Of a stretch of DNA of 64,000 bases, positions 16,068 to 18,596 are shown in pieces. The stretch lies in UHGV virus genome UHGV-0066004; one strand, written 5' to 3'. Positions within the stretch are counted from its first letter, which is position 1, and the number at the start of each line of letters is the position of its first letter. Under the pieces are notes generated by a model that saw only the letters and a program-made list of their open reading frames with translations, was not told the origin of the DNA and searched no databases. This DNA is from a virus. Position numbers and translations under genes: made by a program.

Positions 16068-16068
<1 letters not shown>

Positions 16069-16307
16069 TACATTTTTCCTGCTCTTCTAAGTTCGTTGTA
16101 AGCAATTTCCTCTTTATACGACCTCTGAATTTCAAGAAATTGTCTCAATGATAATAAATCAGAGAATGTCATAGCAAAGAGTTGGTCAAGTGTTTCTTTA
16201 CACCCTTCCATACCATAAATAGCAAGCACAAATTTCATCTCGTCTGCTTCTTCATAGGTTGCCTCTACAGCAGCATCAGTTAGTGGTGTCTGTAGAGTGT
16301 TACCCAT
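16068..16307 (-). CDS. tail assembly chaperone, downstream -1 frame segment
   Basis: 79-aa ORF lying in the -1 frame relative to the upstream chaperone ORF. Confidence 0.6.
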
Positions 16308-16309
16308 GT

Positions 16310-16708
16310 TTACTGAGAAGTTAGGCTTTTGAAAATGCTTGCTTCGAAAAAACTTCCGAAGTTTGCCTCCAGCGCAAATGCTAAGTAATCAATAAATTCA
16401 CCATAGTTTGCTTGGAAGTATGTATCAATATTAAGTGGGAAGTCATCAACAGTTGCCCCTTGAAATAATAAGGTAGCCATCTCTTCAAGGTTAATTTCTT
16501 CAATTCTGTCAAAACAAGCTTCAACAAGCTCTTTAAATGGAACCATTGGAGCTTCCTTCTTACCCTTGTCAGTCAGACTTGATAGCATCTGTGCAAAGGT
16601 TGGAACAACAATTTTACCCAACTTCATAGACATCTTAATACCATCTCTTGCCCCAAGCAGAACGATATTTACTTTCTTACCATTAATTACTCTAGATTCT
16701 GTTTTCAT
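16310..16708 (-). CDS. tail assembly chaperone
   Basis: 132 aa between tail tube and tape measure; slippery heptamer near 3' end. Confidence 0.65.
   Translation of the reverse strand: MKTESRVINGKKVNIVLLGARDGIKMSMKLGKIVVPTFAQMLSSLTDKGKKEAPMVPFKELVEACFDRIEEINLEEMATLLFQGATVDDFPLNIDTYFQANYGEFIDYLAFALEANFGSFFEASIFKSLTSQ
16346..16352 (-). promoter_or_regulatory. candidate -1 programmed ribosomal frameshift site (T_TTT_TTC)
   Basis: minus-strand codons AGT TTT TTC give a slippery heptamer in the zero frame; -1 frame is open from here into the 79-aa ORF. Confidence 0.6.
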
Positions 16709-16732
16709 TGTGATTCCTTAATACTTTTAAAA

Positions 16733-16770
16733 GAAACAAAAAAGGGGAAGACCTTTTAAAGTCTCCCCCT
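16733..16770 (-). terminator. rho-independent terminator
   Basis: GC-rich hairpin (ggggaagac / gtctcccc) followed by U-run on minus strand, after tail tube gene. Confidence 0.6.
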
Positions 16771-16781
16771 TATAGGATTTA

Positions 16782-17228
16782 TTAAACACTTGACGCTGGA
16801 ATTGTAGAAGTGTAGTCTAGCTTCTCACAACCAAAAATCCAAGTTTTAGAGTTCTGGTCACGACCAAGTTCAATCTGCGGTAATTCCTGCAACCAAGCAT
16901 TAATACCAGTTGCCAGAACAGAGCCTGATGGGTCGTAGATTACGAAGTTAGAAGAGATATCTTCTTCAAGTTCCATATTGTCTTGTTTAGCTTGAATTGC
17001 AGAAAGCATCTGGTTAGAGAGAGAAGTCTGCATTAACTCAATCTCAATAGTACCTGTCTTGTCTGCATTTCTTGTCAGAGCAACCTGACCACCTGCACCA
17101 ACAACTGGTGTCACAAGTGGTGATGTTCTCTGTAGACGCAAGAATGAGTCTGGAGCAAAGCCTTCAATAGCAATGCCGTTCCAGCTACATACAACGTCTT
17201 TAGGGGAATATTGCTGATACATAGCCAT
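16782..17228 (-). CDS. tail tube protein
   Basis: 148 aa directly downstream of sheath-size gene. Confidence 0.65.
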   Translation of the reverse strand: MAMYQQYSPKDVVCSWNGIAIEGFAPDSFLRLQRTSPLVTPVVGAGGQVALTRNADKTGTIEIELMQTSLSNQMLSAIQAKQDNMELEEDISSNFVIYDPSGSVLATGINAWLQELPQIELGRDQNSKTWIFGCEKLDYTSTIPASSV

Positions 17229-17243
17229 TCCAATTTACCTCTA

Positions 17244-18596
17244 TTATTCGTAAGCCACTGTACCTTTCAAGTCAACATCCAAGATAGCCCCTGCTAAGAT
17301 ACCTGCGAAGGTAACATCTTTCAGGATACGAGCTTTCTTGTCTGCTAAAGCAACTTGAGAGGCTTTAGGAACATTAACTGTGTAAGATGACAGGAAGTTT
17401 CTGTTGACTGCTCTTTGCAGAGAGGTTTCAATGACTTGACGAATACGGGTAATACCAGTATCATCATAAGTAATCTTACCACCCTTCTGGTTAATTAGCA
17501 AGTCTCTCAGAGAAGTTTTCAGGTCTGATTCTAACCAGTCAACACCACGGACGATATCAATCCATTCCCCACCAGAAGTAATCCCTCTACGAACCACTGG
17601 AACACCACCATCAAGGTCAATAAAGTTACAGTGACGTACATCTAAAGCAGACTTCTGAATACTTGTCAGAGGTCTCTGATTAGATGGTTGTAGAGAAGCT
17701 GCTACACCAGTTAGCTGAGCATTACCCCAAGCAATTGAACCTGCATCATATGGAGCACCATAAGCAATGTATGCCATCTCTGGATAGTCTTCTGCTGCTG
17801 CGTGATGCCACAAGCAAACTGTACGAGTGTACATATTCTTAGCAAGCTGTGCTGGAACATCATTTGCACTGGCTAATTCTGTACCTTGCAGGGCTGTTAC
17901 ATCGGAGTTAGCTGTAAAGAAGATTTTCTTGCGAGCCTGAATCTCAGAAGCCATTGCTAAGACAAACTGTTGAGTTCTGTCTTCTGCTGCAATGAAATAC
18001 CAGTCAGTAGAATAAGCTTCGATAGCTGCCAGAGCAGTTGATGCTGTATCGGCAGTTGTACTTGCAATGTATACAGTCTGTGCTGTGGTTGTTACTTTCA
18101 CAAAGTCATTATCACCAGCTTTGGTAATAATCATTGTGGCAGAGCCATTGCTACCAGTTACATTCACAGAAACCTTATCTTTGATTGTTGGGTCAGCTTC
18201 AATCTGTGTTTTAAACTGTTGCAACACTACCTCAGCAGTGTCTGAGTCTTGTGCTGTGTACTGGTATGGTTGAGAAATTCCACCGCCAGCAGCTACAGTA
18301 ATTGAGTAGTCTGTACTTTCGGTAACGGCATCAGGAATTGATACAGTGTACTGCATAGCACGTCTACCAATATAAAGCTGAGTTACTTTAGGAGTCTGAC
18401 TCCAAAGTTGTTTAGCAGCCTTATATGCAGCAGAGTTTTCATCGAAATCTTCAGCAACTTCAGTTAAGGAAGTGTAACCACGGACTCTTTCTTCAAAGTT
18501 ATCTGTTGAAGCTAAGAATAGTGGCAAACCAAAACCTTCTCTTGTAGTTCCTGCGGTGTTCAATGTAATATCTACATTAACAATTGGATTCCACAT
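17244..18596 (-). CDS. tail sheath protein
   Basis: 450 aa upstream of tube and chaperones; size typical of contractile sheath. Confidence 0.7.
   Translation of the reverse strand: MWNPIVNVDITLNTAGTTREGFGLPLFLASTDNFEERVRGYTSLTEVAEDFDENSAAYKAAKQLWSQTPKVTQLYIGRRAMQYTVSIPDAVTESTDYSITVAAGGGISQPYQYTAQDSDTAEVVLQQFKTQIEADPTIKDKVSVNVTGSNGSATMIITKAGDNDFVKVTTTAQTVYIASTTADTASTALAAIEAYSTDWYFIAAEDRTQQFVLAMASEIQARKKIFFTANSDVTALQGTELASANDVPAQLAKNMYTRTVCLWHHAAAEDYPEMAYIAYGAPYDAGSIAWGNAQLTGVAASLQPSNQRPLTSIQKSALDVRHCNFIDLDGGVPVVRRGITSGGEWIDIVRGVDWLESDLKTSLRDLLINQKGGKITYDDTGITRIRQVIETSLQRAVNRNFLSSYTVNVPKASQVALADKKARILKDVTFAGILAGAILDVDLKGTVAYE

Follow-up and report, generated by a model that had tools for sequence, protein, structure and literature searches.

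The tail assembly chaperone gene of this phage very probably uses a functional -1 programmed ribosomal frameshift of the G/GT type. [quoted passage not shown] The underlying observation is real and confirmed. All positions refer to the window, which is the whole stretch of 64,000 nucleotides of viral genome UHGV-0066004 that was analysed.

The frameshift site is already known, and the case in the window is a rediscovery of a predicted feature. Three genome announcements, those of phages Moogle, Michonne and Mijalis, attribute a -1 translational frameshift to the tape measure chaperone of Felix O1-like phages (PMC4319497, PMC4591319, PMC5543628). GenBank has a joined frameshift CDS for Salmonella phage Mushroom (AJF40599.1, 'tape measure chaperone') and for Citrobacter phage Mordin (YP_009606600.1). 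Among the records opened, these two CPT-annotated genomes are the only ones with a joined CDS. Most records of the genus, including that of Felix O1, have two separate genes, and a frameshift goes unmentioned in the paper on the Felix O1 genome and proteome. A look through the literature turned up neither experimental detection of GT in a Felix O1-like phage nor proteomic or genetic results on its production and need there.

The phage in the window is a Felixounavirus, a Felix O1-like myophage with a contractile tail. Over the 1.4 kb around the site, more than 200 records of E. coli, Salmonella and Shigella phages match at 98-99% identity, and Felix O1 has exactly the same G protein (100% identity). 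On the minus strand the genes come in the order sheath, tube, chaperone G, T segment and tape measure. The features are listed in Table 1.

Table 1. Features of the chaperone region, in minus-strand order, with positions in the window.
Feature	Position	Strand	Basis or detail
Tail sheath gene	17244-18596	-	DUF3383, E 1.1e-22; PHROG 205 tail sheath, E 8.8e-123
Tail tube-type structural gene, 148 aa, directly upstream of G	16782..17228	-	Pfam PF11681, E 3.2e-7
Intrinsic terminator-like hairpin and T run, between tube gene and G	16742..16771	-	13-pair stem
G, tail assembly chaperone ORF, zero-frame product, 132 aa	16310..16708	-	ATG 16708, TAA 16312-16310
Predicted GT, 213 aa	join(16708..16346, 16346..16068)	-	in-silico fusion, 121 + 92 aa
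Shine-Dalgarno-like GGAGG, 13 nt 5' of the heptamer	16366..16370	-	sequence
Slippery heptamer T_TTT_TTC, proposed -1 shift site	16346..16352	-	P site TTT, A site TTC
T segment, -1 frame extension, 92 codons and stop	16068..16346	-	translation
Dual-coding overlap, C-terminal tail of G and GT linker	16310..16345	-	same bases, two frames
Hairpin 2 nt past the G stop, enclosing the ATG of the 79-aa ORF	16253..16308	-	folding
79-aa ORF, the T part from internal ATG 16307	16068..16307	-	as listed by gene callers
Tape measure protein gene, 742 aa	13840..16068	-	Pfam TMP_3, E 2e-17; PHROG 4036, full-length

Both small ORFs fall in families named for tail assembly chaperones. G belongs to Pfam PF21822, Phage_TAC_15 (residues 9-124, E 1.7e-19, 71 bits against a gathering cut-off of 22), and to PHROG 1613 'tail assembly chaperone' (E 2.9e-48). 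The 79-aa ORF falls in PHROG 4963, also 'tail assembly chaperone' (E 2.8e-55). The tape measure protein is presumed to be the client of G and GT. The names given to G homologues in other records vary, and include 'head closure protein', 'Hc1 head closure protein', 'tape-measure protein' and 'hypothetical protein'.

The region also holds some further features. The terminator-like stem between the tube gene and G has GC in 6 of its 13 pairs and is followed by TTTTGTTTCT; it is annotated as a terminator in Mordin and further relatives. This hairpin is strong, and would reduce transcription of chaperone and tape measure relative to sheath and tube. At the other end, the TAA that closes T and GT (16070-16068) overlaps the tape measure ATG (16068-16066) as TAATG, so that ribosomes completing GT would stop exactly at the translation start of the tape measure. 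Most Ounavirinae examined share this overlap. A 51-aa ORF with a TTG start lies on the plus strand (16566-16721), antisense to the 5' end of G. Its Felix O1 counterpart is annotated as ORF157 'unknown'. As it sits wholly inside a conserved coding gene, the antisense ORF is probably spurious.

The preliminary description of this DNA got the geometry right in all its positions and counts. It had placed a 132-aa chaperone ORF here, and this is found on the minus strand, starting at ATG 16708 and belonging to a Pfam tail assembly chaperone family. The 3' end of G reads AAC TTC GGA AGT TTT TTC GAA GCA AGC ATT TTC AAA AGC CTA ACT TCT CAG TAA. The heptamer is formed by the zero-frame codons AGT (16354-16352), TTT (16351-16349) and TTC (16348-16346), and in the minus-strand sequence it indeed stands in the X_XXY_YYZ phase. 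The claimed distance of about 11 codons before the G stop is exactly eleven sense codons when counted. T_TTT_TTC is also the sole heptamer within the overlap of G and T.

Translation likewise confirms that the -1 frame is open and contains the 79-aa ORF at 16068-16307. This frame stays open between 16388 and the TAA at 16070-16068, sharing 76 nt with G. It reads ...KFFRSKHFQKPNFSVNMGNTLQ... and continues on through the 79-aa ORF. Over 16310-16345 the zero frame encodes EASIFKSLTSQ*, and the same bases give the GT linker RSKHFQKPNFSV. The fusion had been estimated at roughly 210 aa; computed, it is 121 + 92 = 213 aa.

In the proposed mechanism, most ribosomes that start at ATG 16708 would read through the site and end the 132-aa G at 16310. 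A small fraction would slip back one base with TTT in the P site and TTC in the A site. Both Phe-tRNAs would then re-pair with TTT, which is a tandem slippage from TTT TTC to T TTT TT. Decoding would resume with CGA AGC AAG and give the 213-aa GT, consisting of residues 1-121 of G and 92 further residues. If the products work like G/GT in lambda and E/E+E' in P2, the tape measure protein would be coated by G and by the G portion of GT, the T portion would bring in the tube protein, and neither product would remain in the virion. This follows the model drawn from the lambda work (summarised in PMC5009743), in which tape measure binding falls to G and the G portion of GT, and tube recruitment to the T portion. 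For the phage in the window, we infer both the slippage itself and this division of labour between G and T.

Published reporter work in E. coli bears on how often ribosomes would shift. There, U_UU.U_UU.C, a validated shift-prone motif, gave only 0.12% frameshifting without stimulators, a low value that counts against the frameshift reading, 0.89% with IS911 stimulators and 7.6% with the IS3 pseudoknot (PMC4066793 supplement). The values for UUUUUUC equal or exceed those for UUUUUUG, the P2 site, and H_HH.U_UU.Y is among the most efficient shift classes in E. coli (PMC4066793). Because the canonical downstream structure is missing, as described below, efficiency in this phage is probably low, somewhere between a fraction of a percent and a few percent.

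The strongest evidence comes from relatives. A set of 16 genomes was compared, consisting of the window, Felix O1, Mordin, ESh21, phiSUSP1, phiEa21-4, Ep030, Yersinia phage P778, a Hafnia phage, three metagenomic contigs, Alteromonas phage PT11-V22 and the Vequintavirinae phiTE, P7_Pc and FV3. The groups covered include Felixounavirus, Mooglevirus, Suspvirus, Kolesnikvirus and Vequintavirinae. All 16 have NNT_TTT_TTY in phase at the same alignment column of G, and the final codon is TTC everywhere except in the Alteromonas phage, which has TTT. G identity to the window goes down to 26-30% in the Alteromonas phage and the Vequintavirinae. The two phenylalanines of the site, F120 and F121, are among only eight invariant columns in the G alignment.

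The extension is conserved as well. In each of the 16 genomes the -1 frame continues for 92-123 aa beyond the site and closes at or just before the tape measure gene. Six of the extensions have no ATG, GTG or TTG in their first 45 codons. Where start codons are found, they have at best AAGG upstream. At metagenomic locus L015, the -1 frame has a TAG directly in front of the heptamer. Entry into the -1 frame is therefore only possible there at or after the heptamer.

Codon use points the same way. AGT TTT TTC is identical in 10 of 10 Ounavirinae-like genes. Over the nine codons for SFFEASIFK, synonymous codon identity in these ten genes is 0.92, which is the maximum of the gene, versus 0.585 for the gene as a whole (column-shuffle p ~0.035). 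The DNA at 16363-16323 is 92.7% identical to that of Erwinia phages, and it is the sole part of the gene that blastn can align. High nucleotide conservation 3' of the site is in itself no proof of an RNA signal, since dual coding explains it fully.

One homologue does without the frameshift. Buttiauxella noackiae JPRU01000001.1, a chromosomal contig of 1.88 Mb, has a tail cluster in which G is followed by a gene of 201 aa and then by a TMP_3 tape measure gene. This cluster is found at locus L012, 3001-3986 (JPRU01000001.1, 1022942-1029322, reversed), and it has a TAATG stop-start overlap. The Buttiauxella G homologue is 126 aa long and 46% identical to G in the window. In the 201-aa protein, the N-terminal half scores above the cut-off for TAC_15 (29 bits) and is a G domain that has diverged, and the C-terminus resembles T; both are encoded together in a separate single ORF.

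In BLASTP, this 201-aa protein aligns to residues 81-208 of the in-silico GT with E 5e-13, and the alignment is uninterrupted across the junction. At the junction itself, NFGSF--FRSKHFQKPNF of GT stands against NFGVFLSFVVKPFVKPDF in Buttiauxella. The predicted fusion therefore has a collinear homologue that is encoded without a frameshift. In the Buttiauxella G gene, Gly-Ser-Phe-Phe is coded as GGC TCA TTC TTC, and the heptamer is gone. Since the heptamer was lost where the shift is not needed, this comparison of sequences argues that what preserves AGT TTT TTC elsewhere is its slipperiness, not the amino acids it encodes.

The preliminary description had also suggested looking for a pseudoknot or stem-loop within 5-9 nt downstream of the heptamer. 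On folding, such a structure is absent. The first 50 nt 3' of the heptamer have no stable fold (-3.2 kcal/mol, z +0.94 versus shuffles), and no conserved downstream base pairing was found in an alignment of ten lineages. In this the site differs from a canonical stimulated -1 PRF cassette of the dnaX or IS3 type, which has its structure at 5-9 nt. An alifold stem AACUU/AAGUU was considered as a stimulator and rejected, given that it overlaps the heptamer, reaches just -5.7 kcal/mol and shows no covariation.

Upstream of the heptamer, GGAGG is a possible stimulator, going by its sequence and position. Shine-Dalgarno-like elements that stimulate -1 shifts have been searched for 6-17 nt upstream of the shift site (PMC4066793), a range that takes in the 13-nt spacing here. 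GGAGG is present in 6 of 10 aligned relatives, the others having GAAGC or GAAAA, and synonymous conservation is not raised over it. A terminator-like hairpin at 16372-16356 was rejected as being at chance level, with 2 such hairpins found where 1.0 was expected.

The nearest stable structure is the hairpin just past the G stop, at 16308-16253, which begins 37 nt 3' of the heptamer. Its minimum free energy is -22.2 kcal/mol (z -3.47), and 0 of 200 shuffles were as stable. A consensus built from 8 sequences of Felixouna-, Moogle- and Suspvirus keeps 17 pairs, and at 5 of these both bases have changed in a compensatory way; an example is the synonymous change from CCG/GAC to CCA/GAT. Kolesnikvirus, Yersinia P778 and the Hafnia phage lack the hairpin. 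At a distance of 37 nt it is too far away for a classical stimulator. It may keep T from being initiated on its own, or serve some other purpose.

It is rather doubtful that this clade-specific hairpin is part of the recoding device in Felixouna-, Moogle- and Suspvirus. Two options may be considered if it were. The hairpin could block independent initiation of T, so that T would be made only as GT. Alternatively, it could hold up ribosomes on the G stop codon, which lies 12 codons beyond the shift codon, and the queue behind them would dwell on T_TTT_TTC. If true, the queue option would amount to a long-range, collision-type stimulator in place of the missing 5-9 nt stem-loop. As a general model for these phages, ribosome queueing is ruled out, because the distance from heptamer to stop varies between 9 and 33 codons among the relatives.

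The same 213-aa protein could in principle arise during transcription. RNA polymerase would then add a U on the T6 run, and mRNAs with U7 would be translated into a product identical to that of ribosomal slippage. The run is indeed homopolymeric, it is T7 in the Alteromonas relative, and the weak hairpin at 16372-16356 precedes it. Documented bacterial transcriptional slippage sites are however runs of about 9 A or T (PMC5009743). The run here is only T6 in 15 of 16 genomes and has not been lengthened, which falls short of that figure. It also always sits in the exact X_XXY_YYZ phase, which is relevant for re-pairing of tRNAs but not for a polymerase, and the hairpin in front of it is no more than chance would provide. 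Transcriptional slippage is accordingly a very improbable source of the fusion.

Another explanation is that there is no recoding at all. G and a 79-aa T would be separate proteins, with T reinitiated at ATG 16307 (TAA AC ATG) and the heptamer incidental. Most GenBank records do list two separate genes, gene callers give the homologues as stand-alone ORFs of 43-79 aa, and with the ATG only 2 nt past the G stop in the window, some free T could be made by reinitiation. But the 15 nt in front of ATG 16307 contain no Shine-Dalgarno core, and the ATG is inside the stable, covarying hairpin described above. Its Met is not conserved, and 6 of 16 relatives are without any start in the first 45 codons. 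The -1 frame before this ATG encodes a conserved peptide, RSKHFQKPNF, whose KP-x-F is seen again in the unshifted protein of Buttiauxella.

The missing starts, the conserved peptide before the ATG and the buried ATG without a Shine-Dalgarno sequence together mean that reinitiation cannot be the conserved strategy. In addition, wherever T lies in the -1 frame the synonymous codons of the heptamer are invariant, and they have disappeared where a gene of its own encodes the fusion. That G and T are made only as separate proteins is therefore highly unlikely.

This leaves the question of chance, as the genome is AT-rich. In-frame X_XXY_YYZ heptamers were counted in all window ORFs of at least 100 aa. 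There are 64 of these per 16,766 codons, or about 1 per 262 codons, so finding one inside the 25-codon overlap (p ~0.1) is not rare in itself. TTTTTTC occurs in-frame only here among the ORFs tested, and of the 64 heptamers, only this one is followed by a long -1 extension (92 codons, 242 nt beyond the stop). On a single genome the case against chance is only moderate; the comparative data are decisive. A functionless heptamer next to an unrelated ORF can hardly be credited despite the p value, since conservation in 16 of 16 genomes across subfamilies, invariant synonymous codons and collinearity with a single ORF exclude pure chance and effectively refute it.

A programmed ribosomal frameshift thus remains the preferred reading. 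The preliminary description had also called this the G/GT strategy upstream of the tape measure gene, and position, family, geometry and conservation, all read from sequence, agree with that. The sequence features by which Xu, Hendrix and Duda (2004) recognize G/GT are all found: the position, the -1 frame, the in-phase heptamer, and conservation with missing starts. Their G/GT type further has both products, the long one at a low ratio, coming from a single start and required for tail assembly.

The in-silico fusion was searched against a set of 5.8 billion proteins, and only proteins of G length were returned, with no deposited fusion or further single-ORF homologue. The 92-aa T segment, searched against 1.84 billion representatives, matched only 8 stand-alone ORFs of 43-79 aa and no further 'Rosetta stone' fusions, which marks it as a narrow family. 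Searching PDB sequences with the fusion brought no match (best E 0.61), and the AlphaFold model of G (pLDDT 78.6) had no significant fold match in the PDB (best E 0.72).

The searches also brought up some records with odd host labels. The 'Campylobacter phage' records A132, A12a and A141 (MG065664.1, MG065666.1 and MG065672.1) match like enterobacterial phages. A132 is 98.3% identical to Felixounavirus coliphages over a 751-nt segment, and A12a and A141 match G exactly as rV5-like coliphages do. The host labels or the sample purity of these three records look doubtful.

For annotation, the consequence is that a joined CDS with slippage at T_TTT_TTC belongs in most of the roughly 300 Felix O1-like records. 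Biologically, nothing is added to the G/GT paradigm. The invariant heptamer from Ounavirinae to Vequintavirinae, together with an unshifted GT in which the heptamer has been erased, does make for a clean test case of slippery-site selection. The system would also be an easy one in which to measure stimulator-free frameshifting in E. coli.

The slippery heptamer of phage lambda is G_GGA_AAG. As in the window, lambda G/GT consists of two ORFs between the major tail protein and tape measure genes. This arrangement is conserved although the sequences are not (work of Levin, Hendrix and Casjens 1993 and of Xu, Hendrix and Duda 2004, 2013, 2014, as summarised in PMC5009743). The G family of the window (Pfam TAC_15) differs from the lambda G family. 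Lambda is a siphovirus, whereas the phage in the window has a contractile tail, so its T part would have to work with a system of tube plus sheath.

Another parallel is E/E+E' of P2, a myovirus of E. coli with a -1 shift on a heptamer based on T6 (TTTTTTG in P2, TTTTTTC in the window). The P2 site has no downstream RNA structure (PMC3091744, describing Christie et al. 2002), which is also the situation here, and in both phages the gene pair is just upstream of the tape measure gene. P2 makes proteins of 91 and 142 aa, compared with 132 and a predicted 213 aa in the window. No homology of G to P2 gpE was found; a Pfam scan at E <=0.1 returned TAC_15 and one unrelated match below threshold. Judging from these sequences, the resemblance to P2 would be one of mechanism only.

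The nearest annotated case is Mushroom, a phage of the same genus, whose G is 98.5% identical to that of the window. AJF40599.1 agrees with the window in gene, heptamer and joined span, its CDS covering 641 nt from the G start to the T stop, and differs in nothing substantial. The annotations in Ounavirinae (Mushroom, Mordin, Moogle, Michonne and Mijalis) are predictions by homology to the pattern of Xu et al. Buttiauxella has the same parts as the window, with a TAC_15 chaperone, a T-like C-terminal segment and a TMP_3 tape measure immediately downstream. Unlike in the window, its long form is a separate 201-aa gene, for which no frameshift is needed.
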